Assembly: GCA_001002285.1 (NCBI GenBank)
Contig: LCLX01000005.1
Coordinates: 1-50,493 of the forward strand
Source of the DNA: Microgenomates group bacterium GW2011_GWC1_46_15
GTDB taxonomy: Bacteria > Patescibacteriota > Microgenomatia > UBA1400 > UBA12028
Direction: 5' to 3'
Length of the DNA stretch: 50,493 nt
Shown here: in pieces, positions 18,206 through 41,180 of the stretch
Layout of the letters: each line of letters starts with the position of its first letter
Numbering within the stretch: the first letter of the stretch is position 1
Program-made: the position numbers and the translations under genes
Notes under the pieces: model-generated
Database searches by the model: none
Told to the model about the DNA's origin: nothing
The model's input: the letters and a program-made list of their open reading frames with translations, nothing else

Positions 18206-18335
18206 AAGCGTGACGATCGGGTTGGCAGCCGGGAGCGCAAAAAGTGAGCGCATTTCTTCAAGATGAAGAGATGAAGTAGGGTGGAACCGCCCAAAGATGG
18301 GTCCCTGCAGTACATATGTGCTGGAGGGATTTTTT
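18206..18335 (+). promoter_or_regulatory. Glycine T-box riboswitch, minimal architecture, transcription-attenuator type
   Basis: T-box AGGG-TGGAACC-GCCC/GGGT-CCCT (18278-18306). Specifier GGC (18224-26) in the 8-nt loop of TCGG/CCGG. Stem III ATTTCTTCA/TGAAGAGAT. Terminator ends in T6. Lies directly upstream of GlyRS. Confidence 0.85.
18302..18335 (+). terminator. Intrinsic terminator of the glyQS T-box
   Basis: TCCCT-GCAGTACA-TA-TGTGCTGG-AGGGA followed by TTTTTT; overlaps the 3' strand of the antiterminator. Confidence 0.85.
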
Positions 18336-18349
18336 GTAGGGAGGGATCT

Positions 18350-19726
18350 ATGAGCGTTACACTCGATGACATTACCGCGCTGGCAAAACGCCGCGGATTT
18401 GTATTCCAAAGCTCGGAGCTCTATGGCGGGCTTGCTAACTTGTATGACTACGGGCCGATGGGAACAGCGCTTCTGCGCAATATCCGTAATCTCTGGTGGA
18501 AAACATTTGTTGATGACCGTGACGACATGGTTGGACTTGATGCCAGCACGATCTCGCATGCAAAAATTTGGGAGGCTTCGGGACACGTTGCGGGATTTGC
18601 CGACGCGATGATTGACTGCAAGTCATGCCACGTCCGTATGCGCGCGGACCATTTGATCGAAGATTACTTCACGAAAAAAGGAAAAGAAGAAAAAGTTGAG
18701 GGAAAGTCGCTGGAAGAGTTGGACGTGCTCATCGCGAAAGAAAAAATCCCGTGCCCAACGTGTGGAAAACACACATGGACAACGGTGCGGAAGTTTAATC
18801 TCTTGTTCCCCGTTCACCTTGGAATTTTGGAAGAGTCGCAGTCGCTTGCGTACCTCCGTGGAGAAACTGCACAGGGAATGTTTGTAAACTTCAAGAATGT
18901 GTTGGACTCTACCCGCGTTCGCCTGCCGTTTGGAGTTGCCCAGCTTGGAAAAAGTTTCCGTAACGAGATTACGAAAGGAAACTTTGTGTTCCGCACACTT
19001 GAGTTTGAGCAGGGGGAGATTGAGTACTTCTTTGATCCCGAACAAACCAAATGGGAAACGCTGTACGAAGAATGGAAAAAAACAATGTGGGAGTTCGTGA
19101 CGACCACGCTTGGAGTGAATAAGAGCAACTTGCGATGGCGCGCGCACACCGATGAAGAGCGCAGTTTTTATAGTAAGCGCACCGAAGACTTAGAGTACAA
19201 CTATCCGTTTGGATACAAAGAGTTGTGGGGACTAGCGTATCGTACCGATTACGATCTCAGCCAGCACATCAAGTTTTCCGGAAAAGATTTGTCGTATACC
19301 GATCCACAGTCTAACAAAAAGTTTGTGCCGCACGTGATTGAACCGGCGGTTGGAATCAATAGATTGTTTTTAATGGTGTTAGCTGATGCGTACTGGAAAG
19401 ATGAACAACGTGGGCGAATAGTGCTGAAGCTGAATAAAACGTTGGCTCCGTATCGTGCCGCAGTGTTTCCGCTCGTATCAAACAAGCCGGAGATTGTTGC
19501 AAAGGCGCGCAGTGTCTATACTGCGCTGAAATCAGCCTATCCTACGGTCTGGGATGATCGTGGAAACATTGGAAAGCGATACCTCGCGCAGGATGAAATC
19601 GGAACGCCATTTTGCGTTACAATAGATTATCAAACGCTGGAAGATAACACCGTGACCGTGCGCAACAGAGATACGGCAGAACAACAACGGGTGAAGATTG
19701 ATGAGTTGAAAGGAGCAGTAGCATGA
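18350..19726 (+). CDS. glyQS: Glycine--tRNA ligase, alpha2 (homodimeric) type
   Basis: 'KRRGFVFQSSELYGG..YDYGP.G', 'YLRGETAQG', 'FRNEIT', 'IEPAVG', 'IGKRYLAQDEIGTP'. ATG 18350 follows SD GGAGG; the ORF-track start at 18281 lies inside the T-box. Confidence 0.96.
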   Translation: MSVTLDDITALAKRRGFVFQSSELYGGLANLYDYGPMGTALLRNIRNLWWKTFVDDRDDMVGLDASTISHAKIWEASGHVAGFADAMIDCKSCHVRMRADHLIEDYFTKKGKEEKVEGKSLEELDVLIAKEKIPCPTCGKHTWTTVRKFNLLFPVHLGILEESQSLAYLRGETAQGMFVNFKNVLDSTRVRLPFGVAQLGKSFRNEITKGNFVFRTLEFEQGEIEYFFDPEQTKWETLYEEWKKTMWEFVTTTLGVNKSNLRWRAHTDEERSFYSKRTEDLEYNYPFGYKELWGLAYRTDYDLSQHIKFSGKDLSYTDPQSNKKFVPHVIEPAVGINRLFLMVLADAYWKDEQRGRIVLKLNKTLAPYRAAVFPLVSNKPEIVAKARSVYTALKSAYPTVWDDRGNIGKRYLAQDEIGTPFCVTIDYQTLEDNTVTVRNRDTAEQQRVKIDELKGAVA

Positions 19727-20505
19727 AAAAGCGAAACCTTTTGATTGGTGTAATGGTTGTAGCGGCAGTTGTACTCAGTGGGTGTGGGAAAAAAACAACA
19801 TCGCTTCAACCTACCCCAAAGCCAAAGTTAGTGCTTCCAAGTAATGTTATTCCTGTTTCTGAACGCCCTTTTGTGACGATTGCTCCAACCGCGGCGCGTG
19901 AAGTTGTTCTCACTATTGGAAGTCTCAAAAAATCAGCAGAATCTGTTGATTTCGAACTTCAGTACTCTGCGGGAGAAAAAGAAGAAGCGGCGATTGGATC
20001 GCTTGATTTGGCAAAAGGAAAAGATCGGTGGAGCAAAACAATTTTGCTGGGATCAAAGAGTGGCGGCGGAAAGATTACGTATCACGAAAATGTTACAGGC
20101 GGCACACTCGCGCTTACGTTCTACAACGAAAACTACAAAATCTCGAATGACTGGGCGTACATTGATAACCGCAAGCCAACTTCACTCTTTGCGTCCCGCG
20201 ACGGCAAGTTTAGCATTGAGACGGGGAAGTTGTTAAAGAGTATGCCGTATGTCATCGTGTACCAAAATCCAGGACTACCGGCTCCAACCACGGGAACTGT
20301 TGTCAGTGGGCCGTACTCTCTTTCGGGAACGAGTACCCTTCCAAGTGGAACAGGAACGGTAACAATGCGGACTTCCGAGGTCGGGCAAGCACAGATTTTA
20401 GGGTGGACTGGAAAGGAATGGAAAATGTTCCCGACCAAAGTTGACGGAAAAATGGCAACGGCGCAGGTTGATATGCTTCAAACATATGTTGCGGTAAGCA
20501 AATAA
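19723..20505 (+). CDS. Lipoprotein of unknown function
   Basis: Basic N-terminus, hydrophobic stretch, lipobox LSGC; ATGA overlap with glyQS. Confidence 0.75.
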   Translation: MKKRNLLIGVMVVAAVVLSGCGKKTTSLQPTPKPKLVLPSNVIPVSERPFVTIAPTAAREVVLTIGSLKKSAESVDFELQYSAGEKEEAAIGSLDLAKGKDRWSKTILLGSKSGGGKITYHENVTGGTLALTFYNENYKISNDWAYIDNRKPTSLFASRDGKFSIETGKLLKSMPYVIVYQNPGLPAPTTGTVVSGPYSLSGTSTLPSGTGTVTMRTSEVGQAQILGWTGKEWKMFPTKVDGKMATAQVDMLQTYVAVSK

Positions 20506-20599
20506 CCAGTTTTTAGTTTTCCACTGGGCTCTTTTTCTTTAGTTATATCCATATCTCACTACGTCATTTTTCCTTGGTGATTTTCGTGTTTTGTTTGTC

Positions 20600-20660
20600 T
20601 TGACACCAGGGATGAAAAGGTATTTACTTGAGGAAGTTAAAACAGTGGTAAAAAATGGTA
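20600..20660 (+). promoter_or_regulatory. dcw promoter with probable MraZ-binding repeats
   Basis: TTGACA (20600-05) with a weak -10 near 20621-28. GTGGTA (20645-50) and ATGGTA (20655-60) are 10 bp apart, like the GTGG-type MraZ boxes. Confidence 0.55.
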
Positions 20661-20674
20661 AATAAACCTAGAAC

Positions 20675-21127
20675 ATGTACCTCGGCACATACTATCATAC
20701 GGTTGAGGAAAAAGGCAGAATCTCTCTGCCGGTCAAGTTTCGCACTCAACTGGGAAAGAAGCCGATTATGACAAGAGGACTTGATGGGTGTTTATTCATT
20801 TTTTCCCAAGCAGAATGGGTTGATTTTTCCCAGGGTATCGAAGAAACGACAATCACAAAAAAAACACACCGCGATTTTGCCCGCTTGATGGCCAACGAGG
20901 CAACAGAACTCGAGATTGACGCCCAGGGCCGCGCACTGGTTCCGGAGCACCTCCGCAAACTCGCCAAACTCAACAAAAACGTCGTGTTTGCGGGTTCCGT
21001 AAACCGCGTTGAACTCTGGGACCGTGCGGTGTACCACGAGTACGCCGAAGGTCTGGAGAAAAAAGCCGAAGATATTGCCGAGTCAATCGAACTTCCTGCC
21101 CGGAAGGTTGGAGCAGATGACAAGTGA
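20675..21127 (+). CDS. mraZ: Division/cell-wall cluster transcriptional regulator MraZ
   Basis: 'MYLGTY.H..EEKGRISLPVKFR', 'RGLDGCL', 'DAQGR', 'VELWD'. Confidence 0.95.
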   Translation: MYLGTYYHTVEEKGRISLPVKFRTQLGKKPIMTRGLDGCLFIFSQAEWVDFSQGIEETTITKKTHRDFARLMANEATELEIDAQGRALVPEHLRKLAKLNKNVVFAGSVNRVELWDRAVYHEYAEGLEKKAEDIAESIELPARKVGADDK

Positions 21128-22052
21128 ACATACACACATCCCCGTCCTCCTTAGCGAGGCGGTGGATGCGTTGGCAGTAAAACAGGGCGAGTGGTATATA
21201 GATGCGACATTTGGTCGGGGAGGACACACACAGCGCATCCTAGAACTCGGCGGAAAAGTGATTGGGATAGACCACGACGAGGAAGCGATTGAGACAGGAA
21301 AAAAAATGTTTGCAGAAGAAATAGCGAAAGGGAATCTTGTGTTAGTCCGCGAAAACTTTGACAAGCTTGGTGAGTTAGCAGACCTCAAAGACAAGGCAGT
21401 GTATGGCGTGTTGTTTGATTTTGGCATTAACAGCGTTCAGTTGGATACGCCGGAGCGCGGATTTAGTTTCCAGCACGATACCGCACTGGATATGCGTATG
21501 GATTCACGTTTAGGGGTGACAGCGAAGGATTTGGTAAACGCGCTAGGAAAGAAAGAATTATACGACTTGCTCACGACATACGCGCAAGAGTATCGCGCGC
21601 GGATTATTGTTGATGCCATTTTGCAGAGCCGAGCAAAACAGCCAATTGAAACAACACAAGAGTTGGCCAATCTTGTGGAGAAAGCGGTTGGTGGACGTGA
21701 AGAGGGTGGTCGCGGTCGTCTGCATCCGGCGACAAAAACATTTATGGCATTGCGTATGGTTGTAAACGATGAACTGGGGAATATCGAGCGGGCCCTGCCC
21801 CCCGCCCTCGATCTTCTCCAGCAGGGCGGTCGGATGGTAACGATCAGCTTCCAAGAAGGCGAAGACCGATTGGTAAAGCACACGATGCGCCAATGGGAAG
21901 CCGATGGAAAAGGTGAACAGCTCACAAAGAGACCAGTTACACCGTTGGGCGAAGAGTTGCAAAGAAACCCAAGAAGCAGGAGCGCGAAACTCCGGGTCTT
22001 CGCAAAAGGCATGAAAACAAAATCGAGTCTAGTAGTGGGAGGAACTCTGTGA
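21117..22052 (+). CDS. rsmH: 16S rRNA m4C1402 methyltransferase
   Basis: 'HIPVLL.E', 'DATFGRGGH', 'RGFSF..D..LDMRMD', 'HPATKTFMALR', 'NPRSRSAKLR'. Confidence 0.96.
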   Translation: MTSEHTHIPVLLSEAVDALAVKQGEWYIDATFGRGGHTQRILELGGKVIGIDHDEEAIETGKKMFAEEIAKGNLVLVRENFDKLGELADLKDKAVYGVLFDFGINSVQLDTPERGFSFQHDTALDMRMDSRLGVTAKDLVNALGKKELYDLLTTYAQEYRARIIVDAILQSRAKQPIETTQELANLVEKAVGGREEGGRGRLHPATKTFMALRMVVNDELGNIERALPPALDLLQQGGRMVTISFQEGEDRLVKHTMRQWEADGKGEQLTKRPVTPLGEELQRNPRSRSAKLRVFAKGMKTKSSLVVGGTL

Positions 22053-22324
22053 AATCAATACTTTTTATTGGCCCACTCTTGTTTGTCACCCTTCTCATCG
22101 GGTTAAACGTTGCGTTTTCCGGCAACATGATCGGTAACGGCGAACGCCTCCATACACTCGAGAAAAATGTGCACGCGCTTCAACTCCAACAAAAAGAGTT
22201 GGCATCAACATTGGCCTCTTCTCAGTCACTTCAGCGCGTATACGATGAGGCATTAGCACAGGGCTACGTTCCAATTAGTCAAGTCGCATATCTTGATACC
22301 ACACGCACCGTCGCTTCACGCTAA
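22049..22324 (+). CDS. FtsL-like small bitopic coiled-coil division protein
   Basis: TM plus coiled coil; sits in the ftsL position between rsmH and the PBP gene. Confidence 0.6.
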   Translation: MKSILFIGPLLFVTLLIGLNVAFSGNMIGNGERLHTLEKNVHALQLQQKELASTLASSQSLQRVYDEALAQGYVPISQVAYLDTTRTVASR

Positions 22325-22350
22325 ACCAAAAACTGCGGTAGGATACATGC

Positions 22351-24135
22351 ATGCCAAGAGCGTACGCACTTCATGAAGGTCCCGATCTTAACAGTCGTAT
22401 TCGTGTGGTCCGCGCATTTTTATTCATCTGTTTATTCGGCGTGCTCGCGCGTCTTTTTTACTGGCAAATCATGAAGGCCGATGATTTACGCAGTGCTGCC
22501 GAGTCACAGTACAGTTCGATTTACCGTACGACTGGTAGTCGTGGGAGTATTTTAACTGCGGATGGGTACGCGCTTGCCGCAAATCAAGATGTGTATACGC
22601 TATTTGCTCAGCCAAAACTGATTGAAAAAACGCCGGAAGAGATCGCGGATCAACTTGCACCGATGATTGCGCCGTTGGAGGAAACTGATAGCGCAACAGT
22701 TTCTGCTGATACGACTCCAATATTACCGGAAGATTTGCTTGTGCAGTGGAAGAAAACGATTATTGAAAAACTGCGTAACTCTGGTTTGAGTTGGGTATCA
22801 CTCAAGCGAAAAATTCCACGGAACGTCAAAGATCGCATGGTTGCGTTAAACATGAAAGGCATTGGTTTTGACCAGGAAGAGATGCGGTACTACCCGGAGG
22901 CTTCTATGGCCGCGCAGGTGCTTGGATTTGTCGGCAACGACGCGCGTGGGCAAGAACAAGGCTACTTTGGTATCGAAGGGTTGTTTGACCGTGAACTGCG
23001 CGGGCGGGCGGGTGTCGTAAAGCAGGAAAAAGATGCCGCCGGCCTTCCGATTGCAATCGGAGGGTACGATGCGATCAACGCGCAGGATGGGCGCGATTTG
23101 GTGCTCACGATCCGTAGAGATCTTCAGTTTATGTTAGAAGATCAGCTCAAAAAAGGCATGGTACGGTATGGAAGCAAAACGGCTGAAGCAGTTGTCATGG
23201 ATCCCAAAACTGGTGCGATTTTGGCGATGGCAGCATTTCCTACCTACGATCCTGCCAAGTTTTATCAATTCGACCCTCAGCTCTATAAAAATCCTATTGT
23301 AAACGACGTATATGAACCGGGTTCAACAATGAAGATTTTCACCATTTCCGCGGGCATTGATACCGGTGCAATTACGCCGGAAATGCAGTGCGATCAGTGC
23401 ACTGGTCCGCGTGTGATTTCCGGCTACACCATTAAAACGTGGAATAACGAGTACACACCCAACACAACAATGCTTGAAGGGCTTGTCCGTTCCGATAACA
23501 CCGCGATGATTTTTGCCGCAGAACGTATAGGTCTTGATACGTATGTGAAAGAACTCCGCAAGTTTGGATTTGGTGAAAAGACAAACATTGATTTGCAGGA
23601 AGAGGCTTTGCCGCCATTCCGCGACACATGGAAAGAGCTGGACATGGCAACCGCATCGTTTGGCCAGGGTATTGCCGTAACGGGGATTCAAATGCTCCGG
23701 GTGGCGCAGGCAATTGCCAATCGCGGAGTGATGATGCGTCCCATGATTGTACAGGCAGTGAAACAAGACGATCGTACAATCACGGTCCAGCCCAAAGAAT
23801 ACCGCCAAGTCATGAGTTTGGAAACCGCGCAGACTGTAACGGGGATGATGGAACAGTCCGCGTTGCATGGAGATGCGAAGTGGGCGATTCCGAAAGGATA
23901 CCGTATTGCCGGAAAAACAGGAACAGCGCAGGTCGCGGTCGCGGGCCACTACGACGCGGAAAAAACAGTCGCGAGTTTCATTGGTTTTGCTCCGGCCGAA
24001 GATCCAAAGTTTGTGATGCTCGTGAAGTTGCGCGAGCCCTCCAGTTCTCCATGGGGATCGGAAACCGCGGCGCCACTATGGTTTAGCATCGCGAGGCAGT
24101 TATTTTTGCGGATGAATATTGCGCCGAGCAGATAG
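22351..24135 (+). CDS. ftsI: Class B penicillin-binding protein (FtsI-like)
   Basis: 'RGSILTADG', 'RYYP', SxxK 'EPGSTMK', SxN 'SDN', 'KTGTAQ'; dcw position. Confidence 0.9.
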   Translation: MPRAYALHEGPDLNSRIRVVRAFLFICLFGVLARLFYWQIMKADDLRSAAESQYSSIYRTTGSRGSILTADGYALAANQDVYTLFAQPKLIEKTPEEIADQLAPMIAPLEETDSATVSADTTPILPEDLLVQWKKTIIEKLRNSGLSWVSLKRKIPRNVKDRMVALNMKGIGFDQEEMRYYPEASMAAQVLGFVGNDARGQEQGYFGIEGLFDRELRGRAGVVKQEKDAAGLPIAIGGYDAINAQDGRDLVLTIRRDLQFMLEDQLKKGMVRYGSKTAEAVVMDPKTGAILAMAAFPTYDPAKFYQFDPQLYKNPIVNDVYEPGSTMKIFTISAGIDTGAITPEMQCDQCTGPRVISGYTIKTWNNEYTPNTTMLEGLVRSDNTAMIFAAERIGLDTYVKELRKFGFGEKTNIDLQEEALPPFRDTWKELDMATASFGQGIAVTGIQMLRVAQAIANRGVMMRPMIVQAVKQDDRTITVQPKEYRQVMSLETAQTVTGMMEQSALHGDAKWAIPKGYRIAGKTGTAQVAVAGHYDAEKTVASFIGFAPAEDPKFVMLVKLREPSSSPWGSETAAPLWFSIARQLFLRMNIAPSR

Positions 24136-24204
24136 AGTTGTAGTGACAGAGAGCAGTTTCCATTCCGTACGGTCATTGTTAGATTAGGACATTACAATAA
24201 TGGA

Positions 24205-24432
24205 ATGCAAACAACGCATATCGCACTTAAAACATGTGGAAATCTTTTGTATGAACTATCAAAAGGAAGCTTACTTACTGCAATCACAACTCCGATTATT
24301 TTACCAAAAACGTCTTGGAAACAGCTTGTAATATTGTATGTTGTTGGAGTTTTCTGTACGATACTATCTATTAAAACAAGGAAATCATATTATTCTACAA
24401 TAGAAGAAAGGAGTGTTCATGTCGGGAAATGA
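24205..24432 (+). CDS. Possible small AT-rich hypothetical membrane protein
   Basis: TACAAT 6 nt upstream of the ATG; one hydrophobic stretch; no recognisable motif. Confidence 0.3.
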   Translation: MQTTHIALKTCGNLLYELSKGSLLTAITTPIILPKTSWKQLVILYVVGVFCTILSIKTRKSYYSTIEERSVHVGK

Positions 24433-24601
24433 CCTTTTTGTTTTAAGTCTTTTACTTTGTGCAGTACTTTTATTTCTTCTTACATTGTTTTCCATTATTG
24501 CCGATAAAGTTGAGTTAGATCGCAAGAAAATCCGTCTTTTGGAAGAGATAAAATCCGGCAAGAAAACATTGCGCCAACTTACACTTGCCGACCTAGAGTG
24601 A
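24419..24601 (+). CDS. Small single-TM hypothetical protein
   Basis: SD AAGGAG before ATG 24419; TM followed by a charged tail; its stop overlaps the convergent gene. Confidence 0.55.
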   Translation: MSGNDLFVLSLLLCAVLLFLLTLFSIIADKVELDRKKIRLLEEIKSGKKTLRQLTLADLE

Positions 24602-26149
24602 GTTTAGTTTGTTTGCCAACGTTTGTTGTTCTTCAGCAAGTGTGTTGTCGCGCTGAATCATCGCTTTTTCATTATCGTTGAACCATTGGTTTGCAGACAT
24701 TTTTGCATATATCGTTTGCGCAATATTTAGCCGCTCGTGCAGAATTGAAATCATGCGTTCATAATCCTGTTTGTGATCTTCATACTGTCCGCCGTAGCTC
24801 CGGGCGCGCTCCCAGCTTGGGAGAATTTCCTGGAGTCTGGTGATAAGCGTCTGCCAACTTTCAATATCTTCTTTTTTGTAGTTTGGTGGGACATATCCAG
24901 CAACGTGCTGGACAATGATTTGCGTGGGGCATCCACGAACTTCACCCAACACCGCCGCAATGCCGGTATCCTGATACTGTTTATCCAATAGGAATGCCTC
25001 CCATTGCGGAAACTGCGCATAGTTTTCCAGCAACTCTTCAGCAGTGTAGTATCCAAGCGTTGGCGCTTCACCGTACACAATGTTGGCATATCCCACTTGG
25101 TTGAGCGCTTTTCGCATGGTGTATCCGCTTTTTGTTGCTTCAAAAGACAAATCGTTATACTTGAGCATTGTTTTTGCCCGAAACGCCGCAGACTGCGCGA
25201 GCTTGTCGTTGTACTTCAGCGGCTTGACGTTGTGTGATGCGCGGATTTCATTGAGTCGGCGGAGATACTCTTGCGGATCAAGCGTGACGGTGTTCGCTTG
25301 TTCATTATCGTTTGACGGATCGTGCCATTGTGCTTCAAACGGCGTTTGTTCTTCAAGCGGGAGTACCTGGTGGATATCTTCGAGATTCACAAGGCCAAGC
25401 GTATGGCGGGAGTCAAGGCTTCCTTTTCTGTTATCACCCATCACAAATACTTTGCCGGTTGGAATTGAAAGTGCTATACAGTTCGGCAAAAATTCACCGC
25501 CAAATGTTGAACGGGCGGACGCGGTATATGGTTCGGGCAACCGTTCGCCATTGCGGAGGACAAAACCATCACGGATTTCAATCGTATCGCCAGGCAAACC
25601 AATGACGCGTTTTACAAATCCGGAGAGTAGTGATCCAGAAAGCGTTGCGGAGTTAGCACTACCATTAGTGCTGTCCGTGTTATTGTTATTTTCGCCATCG
25701 CCACCAGCAATAATTTTTTCTGTTGTATCGTTGATAAAACTCACAACATCGCCGTGCTTGAGCGTATACGACAAATAGTGTTTGCCAAAAAGAGTAAAAC
25801 CACCAGGGTAGGCTCGCATATTTGGCGCGGCAACGGTTTCCTGTTCTTTTTCTTTAGTTGTTTTGCTGGTGCCTTTTGGAAAAGTCGGGTACATGGACCC
25901 CGTTCCCGCAATGTACACGGGCGTGCGGGTAAGTCCCGCCTGCCAGACGAGGGAAGATGTGGCGCGAGCGACCGCCAAGCCAATGACCGCATCAGCAGCC
26001 AGCCAGAGTGGAAGAAGAAAAATGACAAGAACAATGCCGGCAAAAAAACGCTCGAGGTACCACAAAAATCCAAGCCGTTTCTTTTGAGGAACTCGAAGGA
26101 GAAGTTTGAGCAAGTAAAGTGGGTAAAACGCGAGCTTCACAAGGAACAT
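24593..26149 (-). CDS. lepB: Signal peptidase I (S26) fused to a CAP/SCP domain and a helical C-terminal tail
   Basis: Ser motif 'GTGSMYPT', Lys motif 'FVKRVIGLPGD', 'MGDNR.GS.DSR'. Then 'LNEIRASHNVKPLKYNDKLAQSAAFRA...GE...QDTGIA' (CAP-like). Start 26149 follows TTGCAT-17-TACCGT. Confidence 0.85.
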   Translation of the reverse strand: MFLVKLAFYPLYLLKLLLRVPQKKRLGFLWYLERFFAGIVLVIFLLPLWLAADAVIGLAVARATSSLVWQAGLTRTPVYIAGTGSMYPTFPKGTSKTTKEKEQETVAAPNMRAYPGGFTLFGKHYLSYTLKHGDVVSFINDTTEKIIAGGDGENNNNTDSTNGSANSATLSGSLLSGFVKRVIGLPGDTIEIRDGFVLRNGERLPEPYTASARSTFGGEFLPNCIALSIPTGKVFVMGDNRKGSLDSRHTLGLVNLEDIHQVLPLEEQTPFEAQWHDPSNDNEQANTVTLDPQEYLRRLNEIRASHNVKPLKYNDKLAQSAAFRAKTMLKYNDLSFEATKSGYTMRKALNQVGYANIVYGEAPTLGYYTAEELLENYAQFPQWEAFLLDKQYQDTGIAAVLGEVRGCPTQIIVQHVAGYVPPNYKKEDIESWQTLITRLQEILPSWERARSYGGQYEDHKQDYERMISILHERLNIAQTIYAKMSANQWFNDNEKAMIQRDNTLAEEQQTLANKLNSL

Positions 26150-26228
26150 AGATCTACGGTACGGTTTGGAGGTGGGAAATGCAAATCCAGACGAAAGAAT
26201 GGTACAATGTTTTCCGCATTCATTCCAT

Positions 26229-33723: not shown

Positions 33724-33726
33724 TGT

Positions 33727-34758
33727 ATGGCACTTATTTTAGGTTTATTGCTATTTTCATTCATCGTAACAAGTGTGTGTATTGTGCCGTTCATTAACAC
33801 GCTGTACGCGTTAAAGTTTCAGCGGAAAAACAAAAAAAGCAAAGATATGTTTGGATTTGCAACGCCTATTTTTGACGCATTGCACAAACACAAAACAGGA
33901 ACACCGATCGGCGCGGGACTTCTTTTAATTGCTGTTGTATCGCTCTTATTTGCCTCTATTTTCCCTTTGCTTAAGTACTTGGGCATCTCAATCACACAAG
34001 TCTATCCGTTGGAGAAAGAATTAAACGTGATTTTCTTCACCTTCCTATCTTTTGGTCTTCTTGGGTTGTATGACGATATTAAAAAGTTTTTTGGATTTGA
34101 AAAATCTGGATTTTTTGGATTACGGTTATCGCAGAAACTTGCTGTGCAACTCGGTCTTGCGGTCATTATTTCATTGATGTTGTATGGATCGCTTGGAATC
34201 TCCATCGTAAACATTCCGTTTTTTGGCGTTGTGCACATGGGTTTATGGTTTATTCCATTTGCCGCGTTTGTGATTGTGTCGTTTGCCAACGCGGTAAACA
34301 TCACCGATGGTTTAGATGGACTTGCGGGTGGCGTGTTAATGATCTGCCTTTTTGGTTTATGGTTTCTTTCCGCGGCAATTTTAGATACACCGCTGGCCAT
34401 TTTTCTCACGCTGTGGATTGGTTCATTAATCGCGTTTCTTTACTTCAATGTGTATCCTGCAAGAATCATGATGGGCGACGTTGGCGCGCTTGCGTTTGGA
34501 GCAACGTTGGCGGTTGTCGGTCTCCTACTTGGGAAAATTATGGCCCTGCTCATTATTGGTGGAATCTTTGTTGTTGAAGTTGGTTCAAGTCTTTTGCAGA
34601 TTCTTTCCAAACGCATACGCAAACAAAAACTTTTCTCAGCTTCACCTGTGCATTTATGGTTGCAGCACCGCGGATGGCACGAAACAAAAATTGTTCAGCG
34701 CGCCTGGCTTACCGGCATCGTACTTACCCTATTCGGGGTGTGGCTTGCGTTTGTATAA
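33727..34758 (+). CDS. mraY: Phospho-MurNAc-pentapeptide transferase
   Basis: 'HKTGTP', 'GLYDD', 'NAVNITDGLDGLA', 'FNVYPARIMMGDVG', 'P.H'. Confidence 0.93.
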   Translation: MALILGLLLFSFIVTSVCIVPFINTLYALKFQRKNKKSKDMFGFATPIFDALHKHKTGTPIGAGLLLIAVVSLLFASIFPLLKYLGISITQVYPLEKELNVIFFTFLSFGLLGLYDDIKKFFGFEKSGFFGLRLSQKLAVQLGLAVIISLMLYGSLGISIVNIPFFGVVHMGLWFIPFAAFVIVSFANAVNITDGLDGLAGGVLMICLFGLWFLSAAILDTPLAIFLTLWIGSLIAFLYFNVYPARIMMGDVGALAFGATLAVVGLLLGKIMALLIIGGIFVVEVGSSLLQILSKRIRKQKLFSASPVHLWLQHRGWHETKIVQRAWLTGIVLTLFGVWLAFV

Positions 34759-34764
34759 TCCGTT

Positions 34765-35853
34765 ATGAAACTTCATTTTTTTCGTGCGCTATCAAAGCAT
34801 CCTGAACGTCTGATGTTTTTGACAATCTTGCTGTTATTAATTGCAGGAGTGTTGTTTGTGTTCGATGCGTCGGTTGCGGAAGCGTTTTATCAGTTCGGAG
34901 ATAAGTATTACTTTGCAAAACAACAAATGATATGGGTTGGCCTTGGACTGTCCGCGCTTGTTGTGTGCTCTTTTATTCCGGTGAGAGTATGGAAAATGGT
35001 CAGCACACCAGTATTTTTTCTTTCCGTTGCCCTGCTGGTGTTGGTTCTCATTCCTGGTGTTGGTACGACAGTTCAAGGCGCGCAGCGATGGATTGTGTAC
35101 GGTGGGTTTCGGTTTCAGCCTGCGGAGTTAGCAAAGTTGGCGGTGATTTTTTACTTTCCTACCTGGCTGATACACCACCAGCGCATTGGTCCATTCGCGT
35201 TTTTTACATCTTTATTGTTTGGACTGCTTTTGTTTCAGCCAGATCTTGGTACCGCCCTCGTGCTCATGGCAATCTGCGTGGGGCTATACGTTTCCGCAGG
35301 GGGGTCGTGGAAGTACATCGTAGGGTTTGGTGGTGTTGGTATACTCGGAGTTTTATTGATTGTGCTGGTGTCTCCGTATCGTATGCAAAGAATTACTGCT
35401 TTTTTAAATCCTGAAACGGATCCCTTGGGCGCGTCATATCACATCCGGCAGATTACAATCGCGCTTGGTTCCGGCGGGTTGTTCGGACAGGGTATCGGAC
35501 AGTCTCGGCAGAAGTATCAATACATTCCTGAAGCGAGTACTGACTCCATTTTCGCGATCGCGGCAGAAGAGATTGGGTTTATCGGCGCGCTCGTCATGCT
35601 TGGACTTTTCAGCGTCGTGTTTATCCAAGGCTTTGCTATTGCGGAAAAAACGAAAGATCCATATGAAAAACTGGTCGCAACAGGAATTGTGATTTGGGTA
35701 ACGGCACAAACGATATTGAATCTGGGGTCAATTGTTGCGCTGGTCCCGTTAACAGGTGTTCCACTGCCATTTATTTCGTATGGAGGCTCTTCTTTGATCT
35801 CTTTACTTGCAGGCAGCGGTATACTCATTGGTATTGGAAGGAGAACGGCGTGA
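34765..35853 (+). CDS. ftsW: SEDS peptidoglycan polymerase FtsW
   Basis: 'GAQRWI', 'FQPAELAK', 'QPDLGT', 'PEASTDSIFA', 'P.TG.PLPFISYGGSS'; located between mraY and murG. Confidence 0.93.
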   Translation: MKLHFFRALSKHPERLMFLTILLLLIAGVLFVFDASVAEAFYQFGDKYYFAKQQMIWVGLGLSALVVCSFIPVRVWKMVSTPVFFLSVALLVLVLIPGVGTTVQGAQRWIVYGGFRFQPAELAKLAVIFYFPTWLIHHQRIGPFAFFTSLLFGLLLFQPDLGTALVLMAICVGLYVSAGGSWKYIVGFGGVGILGVLLIVLVSPYRMQRITAFLNPETDPLGASYHIRQITIALGSGGLFGQGIGQSRQKYQYIPEASTDSIFAIAAEEIGFIGALVMLGLFSVVFIQGFAIAEKTKDPYEKLVATGIVIWVTAQTILNLGSIVALVPLTGVPLPFISYGGSSLISLLAGSGILIGIGRRTA

Positions 35854-36995
35854 AGATTTTAATCTCTGGAGGTCATCTTACCCCGGCGCTTGCGGTGATT
35901 CATGCGATCCGGCAACGCTCACCAAGAACGCAGGTTGTGTTTGTTGGACGCGAGTACATGCAGGAAAAAGAAAAAATGCAAAGCCGCGAGCGGGAAGAGA
36001 TTGAAAAACAGCACATGAAGTTTTATGAAATTCCTGCGGCAAAGTTTCACCGCACGCACGTATTCCGCAACGCTGAAGAGTTTTTCCGTTTCATTCCATC
36101 AATTAAAAAGTCGTACGACATTATTCACTCAGAAAAACCCGATATCTTTTTGTCGTTTGGTGGGTACTTGGCGGTTCCACTTGCGCTCGTTTCACGAGGC
36201 CTTGGTATCCCAGTACTGACGCACGAGCAAACAAAGACCGCGGGCATGGCAAATCAGCTTATCGCGCATATTGCGACAAAAGTATTAATTTCATACGAAG
36301 ATTCCAAACAATTTTTCCCACGCAAGAAAACATTATTTACGGGCAACCCTTTGCGTCCATCGTTTGCGCGTAACTTCCGCAAAAAACCAGAATGGCTCAA
36401 ACAAGTTCCGCTCACTCTTCCGCTTGTGTATGTAACAGGAGGAAGCCAAGGGTCGCATATTATCAATCAGACGCTGCGGAATATTTTGCCGGAACTCACA
36501 CAGTCATACCTCGTGGTACACCAATGTGGAGCATCACAAGGTTCGAGTTATTTGCACGATCTAGAAGAGGCGAAAGCGGTTCTTCCTCCGCAGAAGCAAA
36601 AACGGTATATTCTCCGCGAATGGATTAGTGAGGAAGATGTTGCGTGGTTGTTCCAGCATGCCGCGCTTGTTGTCGCGCGGTCGGGTGCAAACACGGTGCA
36701 CGAAATTGCTGTGAGCAAAGTTCCGGCAATTTTTATTCCGCTTCCATTTGCGCACAATAATGAGCAGGTTAAAAATGCCATGCCGTTAGTTGACCAAGGA
36801 AGCGCGGTGATCCTTCCACAAAAAGATCTTGTTCCGTCAATTCTTTTACAAACTATCCGAGGAGCAATACGGAGAAAAGAAACGATGCAGAAACATGCCG
36901 ATTTGGCGGGAACACAAGAAATGAACGATGCCGCGTCCCGCATCGCGGAGTACTGCTTTACCCTGTATGAATACACAAAACATCACAAGAAATAA
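35850..36995 (+). CDS. murG: MurG GlcNAc transferase
   Basis: 'SGGHLTPA', 'FGGY', 'HEQ', 'TGNPLR', 'TGGSQG', 'RSGANTV.E', 'EQVKNA'. GTG overlaps the ftsW stop. Confidence 0.95.
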   Translation: MKILISGGHLTPALAVIHAIRQRSPRTQVVFVGREYMQEKEKMQSREREEIEKQHMKFYEIPAAKFHRTHVFRNAEEFFRFIPSIKKSYDIIHSEKPDIFLSFGGYLAVPLALVSRGLGIPVLTHEQTKTAGMANQLIAHIATKVLISYEDSKQFFPRKKTLFTGNPLRPSFARNFRKKPEWLKQVPLTLPLVYVTGGSQGSHIINQTLRNILPELTQSYLVVHQCGASQGSSYLHDLEEAKAVLPPQKQKRYILREWISEEDVAWLFQHAALVVARSGANTVHEIAVSKVPAIFIPLPFAHNNEQVKNAMPLVDQGSAVILPQKDLVPSILLQTIRGAIRRKETMQKHADLAGTQEMNDAASRIAEYCFTLYEYTKHHKK

Positions 36996-37719
36996 GAGCG
37001 CAGACACGCCGTTTCTCCGTAGAAATAAAAAACTCATCTTTACGCTCGTTTTTGTTGCGTTGTGGATTGTTGCGATTGTGTTTGGGTTACAGATCACAAA
37101 GATTTCACGCGTAGAATGTTTTATGCAGGACGATAAAGTGTGTGAGGAAGCAGTTCAGGCAGAGTTTAATGGACTGCGTGGATCGTCACTTTTTTCATTT
37201 TATCCAAACGACATTGAGAAAAAAGTAAAAAGGGCCCGGCCGGAAGTTCAATACATTTCGTACAAAAAAATACTGCCAAACACACTGCGCGTTCTTCTTG
37301 TTTCATATCCAGAATCTTTCCAGTTTTCATCAACAGGAAACCCGCCGTACGCGATTGTAAATGAAGCTGGAGTTGTGATGAGTGTTGAGCAGGATCTCCG
37401 CGATGGCGCGGTGTATACGTTAGCTACCGCAAGTTCCCGCATATACAGTCCAGGAGAAAAACTTGAAGGAGAGATAGGGAATGCTCTTGTTGTTGTTGCG
37501 CAAGCGGTGAAAAAAACATCGTTGCGCGTGCGTATCTGCCGGTACGCGAATCAGGATGAAATAACGTGTACGCTTGAAACCAACAGGATGTTCCTTATCC
37601 ATGCGCGGGATGTTGATAAAGAGCTCACCACTTTACAGCGTATCTTGAATGACGCTACAATGAACGAGTATATGGGCGTTATTGACGTCCGTTTTGCACA
37701 GCCTGTTTTCCGCGAGTAA
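36967..37719 (+). CDS. ftsQ: FtsQ/DivIB-like protein
   Basis: Basic N-terminus, one TM, POTRA-like 'KKILPNTLRV', C-terminal 'IDVRFAQPV'; immediately before ftsA. Confidence 0.75.
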   Translation: MNTQNITRNKSADTPFLRRNKKLIFTLVFVALWIVAIVFGLQITKISRVECFMQDDKVCEEAVQAEFNGLRGSSLFSFYPNDIEKKVKRARPEVQYISYKKILPNTLRVLLVSYPESFQFSSTGNPPYAIVNEAGVVMSVEQDLRDGAVYTLATASSRIYSPGEKLEGEIGNALVVVAQAVKKTSLRVRICRYANQDEITCTLETNRMFLIHARDVDKELTTLQRILNDATMNEYMGVIDVRFAQPVFRE

Positions 37720-37757
37720 TGCGGGAGTGGGTAGAGGAAGAGAAAAAGAAAGTATTC

Positions 37758-39068
37758 ATGCCGAAACACAAAACCATAGCAGCAATAGATATTGGAACAG
37801 AAAAAATCTGCACACTGATCTCTGTACTGCATGAGGGAACCCGGGAACCGCAAGTGGTTGGTGTTGCATCGGTCCCAAGCCGTGGTTTGCGGAAAAGCCA
37901 AATTGTTGATCTCGATGAAGCGATCAGCGCGATGACCGAAAGTGTGGATGCTGCGGAACGAATGGCGGGAACAGGAATAAAGTCGGCATTTGTTTCGGTT
38001 GGCGGAGCGCACATTCAATCGCAAAACTCGAAAGGTGTTGTCGCCGCGTCTAATCCGCAGGGTGAGATTACAGAAGAAGACGTCCGCAGAGTCATTGAGG
38101 CGGCGCGTGCCGTTTCTTTACCAAATGCCCGCGAAGTTATTCATGTGATCCCGCGCGACTACCAAGTAGACTCGCAGTCGGGGATTAAAGATCCGATTGG
38201 GATGTCTGGTGTCCGGCTGGAAGCAGAAGCGCACATTATCACCGGTTCCTCAACCGCGATGCGCAACATTACAAAATGTTTATCCGAGCTTGGTATCCAA
38301 TGCTCCGGTTTTGTTTTTTCAGGTTTGGCGTCCGCGCACGCGGTTCTTTCCGAGACCGAGCGCGAACTTGGCGTTGTCGTTGTGGATATTGGCGCGGGCT
38401 CAACATCAATTTGCGCGTTTGTAGAAGGTTCGTTGGCGTACAGCGGTGTATTGCCGATTGGCGCACGGCACATTTCTGCTGATATTGCATTGGGATTGCG
38501 CATGAGTTTGCAGTCAGCTGAAAAAATTAAGCTGTCTCTGGCACGCGTGTACACGCAAAGCACTGAGCCTTTGCCCGGCGAAACGCGTGAGCAAGCACGC
38601 GAACGCAAAAAGAAACACGACGAACTCGATCCGCACGCGATTGGTGTTACGGAAGAGGTTGGAATGCTTTCAAAGAAAACACTGGTTGAAGGGATTATTG
38701 TTCCGCGGTTGCAGGAAATGTTTAAACTCATTGGTGAAGAACTTGAAAAACAGAACTTGTACCCGCTTATTCCCGCCGGCATTGTGTTAACAGGAGGCGG
38801 TGCAGAAACAGTACAGATTGTTGAGGTGTGTAAGCGCATGTTGAACTTGCCAACGCGTATTGGTGAGCCAGGTGGATTAACGGGTTTGACTGATGAAATT
38901 CATTCCCCCATGTACTCTGCAACGTCTGGCCTGTTGGTGTACGGGGTAAAAACGGGTGCTGAGGAAAGCACTCCAAAAGGACAGGATTTAACGGTATTTT
39001 TTAAGCACTTGCGCGTCAAACAACTTATTGAGAAGTCGGTAAAGTTTGTCCGGTCGCTTTTTCCGTAG
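37758..39068 (+). CDS. ftsA: Cell division protein FtsA
   Basis: 'AIDIGTEKI', 'DPIGMSGVRLE', 'VDIGAGST', 'GIVLTGGGA'. Confidence 0.95.
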   Translation: MPKHKTIAAIDIGTEKICTLISVLHEGTREPQVVGVASVPSRGLRKSQIVDLDEAISAMTESVDAAERMAGTGIKSAFVSVGGAHIQSQNSKGVVAASNPQGEITEEDVRRVIEAARAVSLPNAREVIHVIPRDYQVDSQSGIKDPIGMSGVRLEAEAHIITGSSTAMRNITKCLSELGIQCSGFVFSGLASAHAVLSETERELGVVVVDIGAGSTSICAFVEGSLAYSGVLPIGARHISADIALGLRMSLQSAEKIKLSLARVYTQSTEPLPGETREQARERKKKHDELDPHAIGVTEEVGMLSKKTLVEGIIVPRLQEMFKLIGEELEKQNLYPLIPAGIVLTGGGAETVQIVEVCKRMLNLPTRIGEPGGLTGLTDEIHSPMYSATSGLLVYGVKTGAEESTPKGQDLTVFFKHLRVKQLIEKSVKFVRSLFP

Positions 39069-39110
39069 GTTTGCCAAAAGGAGCCTTTATACACCTCCTT
39101 CTTGCGAACC
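39068..39110 (+). promoter_or_regulatory. Intergenic stem-loop between ftsA and ftsZ
   Basis: GGTTTGC..AAGGAG / CTCCTT..GCGAACC with no U-tract. A -10-like TAGAAT and SD GAGAGG follow before ftsZ. Confidence 0.4.
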
Positions 39111-39193
39111 CAAAGATAATACAGTAGGATAAACGGCATATTGTCTAGTATGTAGAATGTAATTTCCAGCCCGCCCAACATGAAGAGAGGATT

Positions 39194-40387
39194 ATGGCGC
39201 TTGTTAAGCCGAGTAACACAACGTTTGCAAAAATTAAAGTGATCGGCGTTGGAGGCGGGGGTGGAAACGCGATCAACTCAATGATCTCGTCAAACTTAAT
39301 TCAAGGTGTTGAGTTTGTGGCCGTGAATACCGACGCGCAGGCGCTCCTCACAAATAAAGCTGACACAAAGTTTCAGATTGGCTCAAACTATACGCGCGGA
39401 CTTGGCTCCGGTGCCGATCCTGAGGTCGGCCGGCAAGCTGCGGAAGAGTCGCGTGAAAAACTCAAAGAACTCGTGTTCGATACCGACATGGTATTTATCA
39501 CCGCTGGAATGGGCGGTGGGACGGGGACAGGAGCCTGCCCCATTATTGCTGAGTTAGCCAAAGAGGCCGGTGCGCTTACCGTGGCCGTGGTCACGAAACC
39601 ATTTGTATTTGAAGGCGTACGCCGTATGGGTGTTGCCGAAGAAGGCATCGAACAACTCCGAGACAAAGTTGACACTCTGATTGTGATTCCAAACCAGCGG
39701 TTGTTAGATGTTGTTGACCGCAAGATGACGCTCATGGACGCGTTCCACCTTGCTGATAACGTGTTGGGTCAAGGCGTGCAGGCAATTTCCGATCTCATTA
39801 TTGTTCCAGGTTTGATTAATGTGGACTTTGCCGATGTCAAAACCGTCATGTCGGACTCTGGTACCGCGCTTATGGGTATTGGAACGGCATCCGGTGAAAA
39901 TCGTGCCATTACCGCAGCCCGTGCCGCGATTTCCTCACCATTGCTTGAACTTTCTATCGAAGGAGCGAAAGGTATTTTGTACACCGTCACAGGTGGCGAC
40001 GATCTCACGCTTGCCGAGGTTTCTGAGGCCTCTACTATTATTCAACAGACCGCCGATCCCGACGCCAACATTATTTTCGGCGCCAACATTGATAAAGAGT
40101 TGGGAAATACCGTCAAAATCAGTGTTATTGCGACAGGATTTGACGAGAACAAACTACGATATGGTGGATATCGGCCACGGTTTGGCGCATATGACGCCGC
40201 GGCAAAGGCAAAAGTGGCTTCGCAACAAGGAGGCGCGGGAGCGTTTGGAGCTGTGCAATCTAGCCAACAGCCACAACAAAATATGCAGTCGAATCCCGTA
40301 ATCAACGATCAACCCGTACAAGAAGATAAAAAAGACGAATTCGAAGATGAGTTTGATATCCCAGCATTTTTGAGACAAGGAAAGTAA
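39194..40387 (+). CDS. ftsZ: Cell division protein FtsZ
   Basis: 'GVGGGGGNA', 'NTD.QAL', 'GMGGGTGTG', 'INVDFAD', C-terminal 'DIPAFLR'. Confidence 0.98.
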
Positions 40388-40400
40388 TAAAAGAGGAAAT

Positions 40401-40720
40401 ATGCCACCCGTTGCAGAACAAATTGATAGTTTTTGCTACACTCCTGGACAAGGAGAGGGGCGACCCGCAAGATTCGAAATTGTTGTTGCCAATGGAGAAG
40501 GAGGACAGCAATCATACACTTTTCCCTTTTTGAACTCATAAAAGTTTTACAGTTACCTAATTCTAATCCAGTTCTTCTCAATCTTTGGAATATGGTCAAT
40601 CAGGCAGCCGAAGCAGAAAAACTTGACGCAGAATCTCTTTCAGCATTTACGACATTTTTAATGCAGTTGTCTGGATACATGTCTGGGAATGTGGGTGCTG
40701 AATATGCGGGAAAGGAATAA
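40401..40720 (+). pseudogene. Frameshifted orphan gene (about 106 aa if repaired)
   Basis: SD GAGG and ATG 40401 give 46 aa ending at TAA 40539-41. One extra base in the run ACTTTTCCCTTTTTG (40518-32) joins it to the -1 frame '...SLFELIKVLQ...AGKE*', whose stop overlaps the next ATG. Confidence 0.6.
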
Positions 40721-40977
40721 TGGCAGAAACTTTTTCTCCCACTGCTGGGTATGAACGACACTTCATTATTGGTAATTTTGTAGGGGCACCATACTACACA
40801 TATCCTTTTGGAGAACGCGTGACCCCTGAAAAAGATATTCCTCAAAAATATCGTGTCAGACGCCCACTTCCAGGTGGTAAAACTCAAGTCTGTGATAGTA
40901 GAATCGCATATACTTTTCATCCCAAAGTTGGTGCATACCTTGAATGCGCTGATGTTGCGTTTGATGAAGAGTGGTGA
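40720..40977 (+). CDS. Hypothetical protein (85 aa)
   Basis: SD AAGGA, TAATG coupling to the upstream frame; no recognisable motif. Confidence 0.55.
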   Translation: MAETFSPTAGYERHFIIGNFVGAPYYTYPFGERVTPEKDIPQKYRVRRPLPGGKTQVCDSRIAYTFHPKVGAYLECADVAFDEEW

Positions 40978-41002
40978 TCATTTCCTGACTGCAGTTCACC
41001 TG

Positions 41003-41180
41003 TGTTATACTATTCCCAAATAAATAAAAGCATACTCCCCGCCCATCATCGGGGTGCTGATCGAAGAAATCCTTCGGGAAAGTAGAACGATCCGGGTAAG
41101 CCCGAGACAGCAGGATTGAGAAGCAAGTAAGGTGGAACCACGCGGAAGCGTCCTTGAAGGACAGTGAGCGTGGTTTTTTT
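41003..41180 (+). promoter_or_regulatory. Isoleucine T-box riboswitch with ultrashort Stem I and an intrinsic terminator, plus its promoter
   Basis: TGtTATACT (41003-11). Stem I AGCA-tact-CCCCG[CCCATCAT]CGGGG-TGCT with ATC at 41045-47. Stem II GATCG..GAA..cTTCGg..AGTA..CGATC. Stem IIA CGGG/CCCG. Antiterminator AAGG-TGGAACC-ACGC-GGAA-GCGT-CCTT. Terminator CCACGC/GCGTGG plus T7. Confidence 0.88.

Follow-up and report, generated by a model that had tools for sequence, protein, structure and literature searches.

Two short leader regions on one contig of the Microgenomates group bacterium GW2011_GWC1_46_15 genome, one upstream of the glycyl-transfer RNA (tRNA) synthetase gene glyS and the other upstream of the isoleucyl-tRNA synthetase gene ileS, are very probably T-box riboswitches that control these genes by transcription attenuation. 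The window analysed here is that one whole contig (LCLX01000005.1, 50,493 nt) of a genome of 914 kb in 8 contigs. The leaders represent a truncated-Stem-I, terminator-type T-box variant that is common but patchy in the phylum Patescibacteria, and its Gly form, which is without Stem II and without the platform that docks the tRNA elbow, is the most reduced. An ultrashort Stem I is known from the translational ileS T-boxes of actinobacteria; new here is that it is joined to terminators and, in the Gly type, that Stem II is absent as well. The anatomy of the leaders, their mutually exclusive folds, the correspondence of codon and discriminator with the gene, stem covariation and distribution were obtained directly, with the covariance model RF00230 of Rfam (curated gathering score 93 bits) as the T-box reference.

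The glyS leader and its surroundings comprise the following features.

17636-18196, recO (Pfam RecO_N)
18170..18199, forward strand, promoter-like site, TTGACA / 18-nt spacer / TAAGAT, overlapping the end of recO (10/12 matches; shuffle mean 0.2)
18208..18238, forward strand, ultrashort Stem I (RNAfold; RNAalifold on 15 Gly leaders; covariation)
18224..18227, forward strand, specifier GGC followed by A; GGC at 18224-18226 is loop positions 4-6, A is 18227 (sequence; tRNA-Gly(GCC) in the genome)
18251..18273, forward strand, Stem III, a 10-bp hairpin (fold; Rfam alignment with high posterior at Stem III positions)
18276..18308, forward strand, T-box sequence and weak antiterminator (Rfam alignment; fold of 18206-18308)
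18299..18335, forward strand, predicted intrinsic terminator, hairpin 18299-18332 and U tract 18330-18335 (fold)
18350..19726, forward strand, glyS, dimeric-type glycine--tRNA ligase (NCBIfam NF003211, 618.9 bits against a cut-off of 312)

Stem I of this leader is built from a 4-bp base helix, an asymmetric GA-containing internal loop, a 4-bp upper helix and a terminal specifier loop; the resemblance of the internal loop to a kink-turn (K-turn) rests on inspection and a simple pattern. The specifier loop, GTTGGCAG, is 8 nt long (18221-18228) and is closed by the helix TCGG/CCGG (18217-18220 / 18229-18232). Because the recO stop and the promoter-like site lie directly upstream, with a predicted start at about 18206, there is no room for a long Stem I. 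An A-rich linker (18239-18250) precedes Stem III, and neither Stem II nor IIA/B was found in this leader by folding, in the Gly alignments or from the spacing across leaders. The T-box sequence GGTGGAACC occupies 18280-18288 and includes the 7-nt bulge UGGAACC (18282-18288), whose UGGA (18282-18285) is complementary to the tRNA 3′ end UCCA, the tRNA-Gly discriminator being U. The terminator, which reuses the 3′ strand of the antiterminator as its 5′ arm, has a folding energy of -21.3 kcal/mol (z -5.0) that is equalled by 0 of 200 shuffles. In a local search RF00230 gives this leader 30.3 bits (E 3.2e-5), with most Stem I positions deleted.

The ileS leader lies in the second half of the window.

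41003..41011, forward strand, extended -10-like element TGnTAnnnT (sequence pattern)
41030..41057, forward strand, ultrashort Stem I, 3-bp base 41030-41032 / 41055-41057 and 5-bp helix 41037-41041 / 41050-41054 (fold)
41045..41048, forward strand, specifier ATC followed by A; ATC at 41045-41047 is loop positions 4-6, A is 41048 (sequence; tRNA-Ile(GAU) in the genome)
41059..41092, forward strand, Stem II with internal-loop strands AAGAAA and AAGUAGA (RNAalifold on 11 Ile leaders; Rfam alignment)
41093..41114, forward strand, Stem IIA hairpin CGGG/CCCG (41093-41104), then a conserved linker (Rfam alignment; RNAalifold)
41128..41156, forward strand, T-box sequence and weak antiterminator, bulge UGGAACC at 41133-41139 (Rfam alignment; fold)
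41134..41180, forward strand, predicted intrinsic terminator, hairpin 41134-41177 and 7-U tract 41174-41180 (fold)
41212..44031, forward strand, ileS (NCBIfam TIGR00392, 854.7 bits against a cut-off of 621.4)

Here the specifier loop, CCCATCAT, again measures 8 nt (41042-41049) and is closed by CCCCG/CGGGG. A pattern test detected no GA/K-turn motif in this Stem I, and a consensus scanner found no -35/-10 pair at the leader. The T-box sequence GGTGGAACC recurs at 41131-41139, and the 5′ arm of the terminator reuses the T-box bulge and the inner antiterminator helix. At -21.6 kcal/mol (z -3.6) this terminator, too, is equalled by 0 of 200 shuffles, and the full leader folds to the terminator form. 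RF00230 scores 26.8 bits (E 2.6e-4, local search) and sets 22 nt of the leader in Stem I, where 91 model positions are deleted. In the two leaders the model aligns over its full extent, taking in the K-turn/Stem I base, Stem II/IIA, Stem III (gly) and the T-box with its antiterminator. Both terminators were obtained by folding, used in place of a simple terminator scanner that overlooked them and listed two unrelated sites; it overlooked the glyS terminator owing to a mismatch in the stem.

The original prediction had drawn attention to a geometry shared by the two leaders, with the cognate codon at positions 4-6 of an 8-nt hairpin loop and followed by A, and each leader preceding AAGTA(G/A)GGTGGAACC. 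Both statements are borne out by the sequence at the coordinates given above, and RNAfold yields both hairpins. The geometry describes the two window leaders and is no invariant of the family, since loops in relatives vary from 5 to 10 nt and the two remaining leaders of the same genome, upstream of serS and aspS, place the codon at positions 3-5 of a 7-nt loop. The serS leader (contig C4; loop TTAGCAG, codon AGC, UGGC) scores 45.1 bits with Rfam, and the aspS leader (contig C1; loop CCGACAC, codon GAC, UGGC) is missed by Rfam and was found by a motif scan. The genome thus carries four short T-box leaders, all cognate: GGC before glyS, ATC before ileS, AGC before serS and GAC before aspS. None of the four reaches the cut-off, and at the gathering threshold RF00230 has no match anywhere in the window; the motif scan recovered no further T-box with a downstream U run in this genome, and no long T-box was found there.

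The tRNA complement of the genome accommodates these assignments, with genes for tRNA-Gly(GCC), tRNA-Ile(GAU), tRNA-Ser(GCU) and tRNA-Asp(GUC). Their discriminators are U for Gly, G for Ser and Asp, and A for Ile, so that the variable base of UGGN would pair in the gly (A with U73), ser (C with G73) and asp (C with G73) leaders, and in the ile leader A stands opposite A73. The glyS loop segment UUGGCAG (18222-18228) can moreover pair with all 7 nt of the anticodon loop of its own tRNA-Gly(GCC), UUGCCAA, through six Watson-Crick pairs and one G-U pair. Whole-anticodon-loop complementarity was rejected as a common feature, as it holds for Gly but amounts to only 4 pairs in the Ile leader of this genome. 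ARAGORN additionally listed a tRNA-Ser with anticodon ACU beside tRNA-Ser(UGA), and a tRNA-Ile with anticodon UAU (C1:56421-56504, C3:107647-107720).

Tracking between codon and gene was examined in 41 genomes of the same family or order, that of the window included. RF00230 at E<=0.01 matched 34 of the 41 with 79 matches, and only 3 of the 41 genomes have a match above the cut-off. All 79 loci were taken; 76 gave a first downstream open reading frame (ORF) of at least 80 aa, which was named through NCBIfam, and 49 of the matches proved to be linked to a synthetase gene (Gly 13, Ile 13, Ser 5, Arg 5, Trp 3, Thr 3, Asp 3, and Cys, Pro, Ala and Lys 1 each). A loose rule blind to these labels (a hairpin of at least 3 bp, a loop of 5-10 nt, and codon plus purine no more than 3 nt from the 3′ stem) found the cognate codon in 42 of the 49, while also passing about 6.9 of the 20 amino acids per leader. 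Shuffling the labels 20,000 times gave a mean of 21.5 (sd 3.1, maximum 33), and swapping labels between whole classes gave a mean of 16.8 and a maximum of 34. The expectation that the loop triplet follows the downstream synthetase is therefore upheld, with 42 observed against 21.5 from label shuffles. This permutation test replaced a label-blind "best hairpin" rule, which chose Stem II or other hairpins in many leaders.

A curated set of 43 short leaders was assembled from the 49 synthetase-linked matches by identifying the homologous hairpin. The six left out are L006 and L011, which are long, L017, which is intermediate and has an internal specifier loop, and L035, L048 and L064, in which the specifier could not be assigned. 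In all 43 the cognate codon lies in or at the terminal loop of a short Stem I, across eight amino acids, the codons being GGC (12), ATC (12), CGC (5), AGC (4), TCC (1), ACC (3), GAC (3), TGG (2) and TGC (1). The Ser leaders carry two unrelated codons, AGC and TCC. For Arg, the CGC+G reading is taken from gene context only, since the loops (GUCGCGA) can also be read as GCG+A, for Ala. Loops range from 5 to 10 nt; the base preceding the codon is a pyrimidine in 41 of 43 and the base after it a purine in 40 of 43. The conserved feature is thus pyrimidine-codon-purine near the 3′ side of the terminal loop. Two broader descriptions of the class were rejected: anticodon-loop mimicry, because only 12 of the 43 loops are 7 nt long, and a K-turn, because the strict pattern fits only 9 of the 43.

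The variable base of UGGN follows the tRNA in a similar way when leaders are compared with the discriminators of the tRNAs of the window's own genome. It is A in the U73 classes (Gly, Thr, Cys), C or U in the G73 classes (Ser, Asp, Trp), and U in the A73 classes (Arg and 8 of the 12 Ile leaders, plus the Ala, Lys and Pro leaders). This correspondence breaks down in the ileS leaders of the window's own subclade (G000, G002, G007 and G009). In that subclade UGGA is shared by the ileS leaders of G002, G007 and G009 (L070, L079, L080), and the other eight Ile leaders have UGGU. The tRNA-Ile(GAU) genes of G002 and G007 (loci L183 and L184) are 100% identical to that of the window's genome over 74 matched bases and have discriminator A; no tRNA-Ile match was found in G009. 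Given the A-A mismatch, the ileS leader may respond weakly.

Structural conservation points to the same short architecture. On 15 Gly leaders RNAalifold, unaided, recovers the Stem I hairpin and the antiterminator; UGGC is invariant across this alignment, and the T-box motif is invariant in both the Gly (A1) and Ile (A3) alignments. A covariance model, R1, was built from the 15 Gly leaders and 22 Gly-type leaders were re-aligned to it. In the resulting alignment, whose fitting to R1 favours the modelled structure, 94.8% of cells are paired. Shuffling lowers this to 83.2%, with none of 500 shuffles as high as the real alignment, and sliding the partners lowers it to 49-56%; in three of the four Gly Stem I pairs both bases vary. 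All 12 curated Ile leaders have ATC in the loop, and there are 11 different stem sequences among the 12. A one-column register shift in A3 left Stem I uncalled by RNAalifold, so a per-leader stem table was used for this helix. On 11 Ile leaders RNAalifold supports Stem IIA and also Stem II, in which two pairs have both partners substituted, one in 8 sequences and the other in 7. A MAFFT alignment of 24 short leaders of mixed amino-acid classes misaligned the 5′ domain and was kept out of the counts.

The Ile alignment also contains a pairing outside the canonical stems. RNAalifold pairs an (A/U)GC that follows Stem I with a GC(U/A) in the linker after IIA (A3 columns 33-35 / 101-103; window 41055-41057 / 41110-41112), a helix that brackets Stem II and IIA and whose first pair is AU in 5 leaders, UA in 3 and unpaired in 3. 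In the window's own leader the UGC at 41055-41057 is claimed both by this pairing and by the predicted base helix of Stem I, where it forms the 3′ side, which puts the two in competition.

The expression signals are likewise shared by most of the curated leaders. A hairpin that starts within the antiterminator and abuts a run of at least 5 T is present in 37 of the 43, and an extended -10 pattern lies 15-42 nt 5′ of Stem I in 24 of the 43, as against 6% of random 60-nt windows. From these features we infer tRNA binding, the transcription start site and regulation as follows. Transcription would start just 5′ of the very short Stem I, whose terminal loop would offer GGC or AUC plus a purine to the anticodon of the cognate tRNA. 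When that tRNA is uncharged, its NCCA end would pair with UGGN in the 7-nt bulge and stabilise the weak antiterminator, allowing read-through into the synthetase gene. When it is charged or absent, the much stronger terminator would form and transcription would stop at the U tract. The distal Stem I platform for docking the tRNA elbow is predicted to be absent from both leaders, and because the glyS leader also has no Stem II domain, its predicted tRNA contacts are the anticodon and the 3′ end only.

Several observations weigh against interpreting the leaders as tRNA-sensing attenuators. Both score far below the 93-bit Rfam threshold (30.3 and 26.8 bits), which is attributable to the deleted Stem I positions. 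Elbow platform and Stem II are both missing from the glyS leader, and Stem III from the ileS leader, with Rfam aligning 0 nt to the Stem III positions. The upper helix of the gly Stem I is just 4 bp long and includes a G-U pair, and the isolated hairpin (z -0.4) is no stabler than shuffles. The ileS UGGN base A is mismatched with the tRNA-Ile discriminator A73, and start sites and terminators are predictions. Taken singly, the window hairpins are not beyond chance; 14-15% of all codon-plus-purine sites in the genome fall in a loosely defined hairpin loop. The weight of both leaders comes from the Rfam alignments, the terminators, the recurrence of the hairpin at that position in relatives, where the stems covary, and the tracking of codon with gene. 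This background rate of loose loops lends something to the view that the hairpins resemble specifier loops by chance, that only the 3′ T-box and antiterminator are real and that the true specifier is elsewhere, as does the Rfam alignment of the gly leader, which sets Stem I inside recO with low posterior probability. We consider this explanation highly improbable. The recO stretch used by Rfam is coding sequence upstream of the promoter-like site, whereas the hairpin stands at the same place, with UGGCA in the loop, in 12 Gly leaders of the order; UGGC followed by A, C or G occurs in 3 further loci upstream of glyS relatives and in some loci of the phylum sample, and the hairpin is recovered by both RNAalifold and the covariance model.

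A different concern is that the elements are real and work otherwise. They might act on translation by Shine-Dalgarno sequestration, like the actinobacterial short-Stem-I class, and excerpts of the literature do associate a short Stem I with translational control (PMC7583486, PMC7778990, PMC11297988). Two Gly leaders, L026 and L031, are without a T run, the GGGAGG of L026 could pair with the antiterminator CCCU, and the 3′ arm GGAGGGA of the window's own gly terminator copies the ribosome-binding site 11 nt downstream. We nevertheless regard translational control as unlikely for the window leaders, in which a strong hairpin is directly followed by 6-7 U and the ribosome-binding site lies outside it, downstream, a layout repeated in 37 of the 43 short leaders. 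Alternatively, the leaders could be decaying remnants of full-length T-boxes in a shrinking genome, that is, constitutive or leaky attenuators that no longer sense tRNA. Such decay would fit the loss of the distal Stem I from both leaders, of Stem II from gly and of Stem III and the K-turn from ile, as well as the ileS discriminator mismatch and the many glyS genes of the candidate phyla radiation (CPR) that have no leader at all. It accords poorly with the conservation, across families of the phylum, of the codon, the following purine, the UGGN base and the bulge while the Stem I helix covaries, and with specifiers that follow gene identity in eight amino-acid classes; in addition, an unrelieved constitutive terminator before an essential synthetase gene would presumably be costly. 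We therefore give this account, too, little credence, and favour tRNA-responsive transcription attenuation at both genes.

If tRNA-responsive attenuation is correct, the Gly form could be the smallest natural T-box, measuring some 100 nt (K-turn through antiterminator) and deciding termination by two contacts, kissing between anticodon loop and specifier loop and the NCCA/UGGA pairing; we put this forward tentatively and would not be surprised if it failed. Were it true, the kinetic argument that co-transcriptional T-boxes need an elbow platform would fail in these organisms, or else an unknown factor or a slow polymerase would compensate for the absent contacts.

Short and long forms were compared across the phylum in an evenly drawn sample of 151 genomes. 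RF00230 at E<=0.001 matched 51 of the 151, with a match above the cut-off in 5. Among 101 full-model matches (median 187 nt), 69 are no longer than 200 nt and 5 reach 93 bits. The Gly model R1 matched 19 of the 151 genomes; 14 of the 18 matches outside the window's own genome were examined through NCBIfam, of which 6 precede glyS, 7 precede thrS and 1 has an unmatched ORF, and Gly- and Thr-type leaders share UGGA. Many CPR glyS genes carry no T-box. The proposal of a lineage-wide family of miniaturised T-boxes that standard models score poorly therefore holds as to the family and its sub-threshold scores (above the cut-off in only 3 of 41 and 5 of 151 genomes), and its coverage is patchy rather than universal. 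Since curated thresholds hide most T-boxes of the phylum (5 against 51 of 151 genomes), these organisms would wrongly seem to be without this control of synthetase genes. The original prediction also stood to lose if other synthetase genes had leaders with a full-length Stem I. None was found in the genome itself, but relatives do have them, before glyS in G030, lysS in G019 and a tyrosyl-tRNA synthetase (TyrRS)-like gene in G002 and G007. The glyS leader of G030 (L006) is canonical and glyQS-like (97 bits, 177 nt) and precedes the same type of glyS, the long lysS T-box of G019 scores 77 bits, and Clostridia-type glyS loci have long Stem I leaders.

A number of observations in the window and in other genomes accompany these results. 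In the window, glyS overlaps a 260-aa ORF (19723-20505; without a Pfam match) by 4 nt, and ileS overlaps a transporter ORF (44028-45224; Pfam MFS_1) of the major facilitator superfamily (MFS), also by 4 nt; each T-box may thus control a two-gene operon, glyS with the 260-aa ORF and ileS with the MFS transporter. The GGAGGGA of the glyS terminator 3′ arm (18323-18329) is copied exactly in the ribosome-binding region 11 nt on (18340-18346), a repetition that hints that the terminator may have arisen by duplication of a sequestered Shine-Dalgarno sequence, or the reverse. No T run follows the T-box in two Gly leaders of relatives, L026 1440-1613 (-) of G001 and L031 1437-1606 (-) of G036. For L026, pairing between the antiterminator strand CCCU and the ribosome-binding GGGAGG is conceivable, and this leader would then be a form of the short type that acts on translation.

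The short Gly T-box (L141 449-555 (+), G189) also precedes glyS in a metagenome-assembled genome of about 1 Mb labelled uncultured Bacilli. This leader of 107 nt has a K-turn, a 4-bp helix and the loop CUUUGGCAA, and scores 80 bits to the CPR-derived R1, compared with 59 bits for the window's own leader; nine other T-box matches in the same assembly are longer or higher-scoring. Transfer of glyS together with its leader is possible, as is a mislabelled bin.

A T-box before a tRNA gene is unusual, and three relatives have one upstream of tRNA-Tyr(GUA): L010 1501-2825 (+) in G002, L066 442-1757 (-) in G007 and L024 544-1701 (-) in G015. These T-boxes measure 281 nt, at least 260 nt (to the locus end) and 201 nt, respectively, and the specifier region of L010 and L066 reads ...GAAAUAC... 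(UAC, Tyr). The ORF after the tRNA-Tyr gene encodes 276-304 aa in the three loci, which are mutually homologous at 32-46% identity and have no NCBIfam match and no Pfam match at E<=1e-5 (for L010, none at E<=1); tblastn found no homologue in the window's genome. Structure and language-model leads suggest that these ORFs may encode a class I synthetase of the Trp/Tyr fold that has diverged strongly (feature score 0.90; TM of 0.58 against archaeal TyrRS models). Two further families of soluble ORFs of 342-375 aa, both lacking a family assignment, follow T-boxes elsewhere: one in L005 454-1792 (-), L007 411-1748 (-) and L018 1501-2900 (+), with pairwise identities of 23-32%, and a second family in L012 310-1783 (-) and L014 1501-3046 (+), with 24% identity, a specifier region AAG (perhaps Lys) and a weak GNAT match (E 8e-4). 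The T-boxes are long in L005, L007 and L012 and 183-218 nt in L014 and L018, and both families may be tRNA- or amino-acid-linked enzymes. The first ORF after the T-box encodes a GIY-YIG nuclease-domain protein in L044 530-874 (+) of G006 and L057 1647-2072 (+) of G004.

Our findings bear on a broader discussion of T-boxes as a model for how RNA recognises RNA, where a short Stem I is at present linked with control of translation. Excerpts of PMC7583486 state that transcriptional T-boxes generally need a long Stem I platform, describe "ultrashort" Stem I as translational and mostly actinobacterial, and call the Stem II domain essential where Stem I is truncated; section 6.2 of that review holds that a decision taken during transcription calls for the elbow platform. 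According to excerpts of PMC7778990, the TBDB short-Stem-I model was run only on Actinobacteria and on class I matches with truncated Stem I, and in excerpts of PMC11404447 previously characterised glycyl T-boxes all lack Stem II, with one exception reported there. Our literature searches returned nothing joining T-boxes with Patescibacteria or the candidate phyla radiation, and nothing on short-Stem-I T-boxes with terminators. Dozens of natural leaders of ultra-small bacteria that combine a short Stem I with a terminator, for at least eight amino acids, offer a direct test of which tRNA contacts are required, and they could supply very compact tRNA-sensing parts for engineering.

Among known systems, the two leaders resemble the canonical class I transcriptional T-boxes (RF00230; tyrS and glyQS of Bacillus subtilis) in their 7-nt UGGNACC bulge, their antiterminator in competition with an intrinsic terminator, and their specifier codon followed by a purine. 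The gly leader further shares the match between UGGN and the discriminator and the GA/K-turn-like motif at the base of Stem I, and the ile leader shares Stem II with IIA/B. Unlike canonical T-boxes, they lack all of Stem I above the specifier, carry the specifier in a terminal rather than an internal loop, and have no elbow-docking platform. The base before the codon also differs, being a pyrimidine in 41 of 43 short leaders and A in the canonical-type Gly leader of G030 (GAAGGCAC). With glyQS-type glycyl T-boxes the gly leader has in common the GGC specifier, the UGGA bulge, the absence of Stem II and an A-rich linker followed by Stem III; glyQS captures its tRNA through a long Stem I platform, in contrast with the helix of 3-5 bp, capped by the specifier loop, of the short Gly form.

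In the actinobacterial leaders of Sherwood et al. 2015/2018, the specifier reportedly lies in the terminal loop. The work of Sherwood, Grundy and Henkin in 2015 on actinobacterial ileS is described in PMC7583486, PMC7778990 and PMC11297988, and in the excerpts of these descriptions the Mycobacterium-type ileS T-boxes likewise have a truncated Stem I, intermediate or "ultrashort", without an elbow platform; the window's ileS leader keeps their Stem II and IIA/B, their AUC specifier and their target gene ileS. Three features of this short-Stem-I class (TBDB class II) were tested in the window: both leaders have the truncated Stem I without elbow platform, in place of Shine-Dalgarno sequestration there is a terminator and a free ribosome-binding site, and the Stem II domain is present in the ile leader and absent from the gly leader. 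As far as the excerpted descriptions set the two groups apart, the Patescibacteria leaders thus differ from those of actinobacteria in using an intrinsic terminator rather than Shine-Dalgarno sequestration, in their host, and in serving at least eight amino acids; the window's ileS leader is also without Stem III, and the Gly members go further still, dispensing with the Stem II domain as well.

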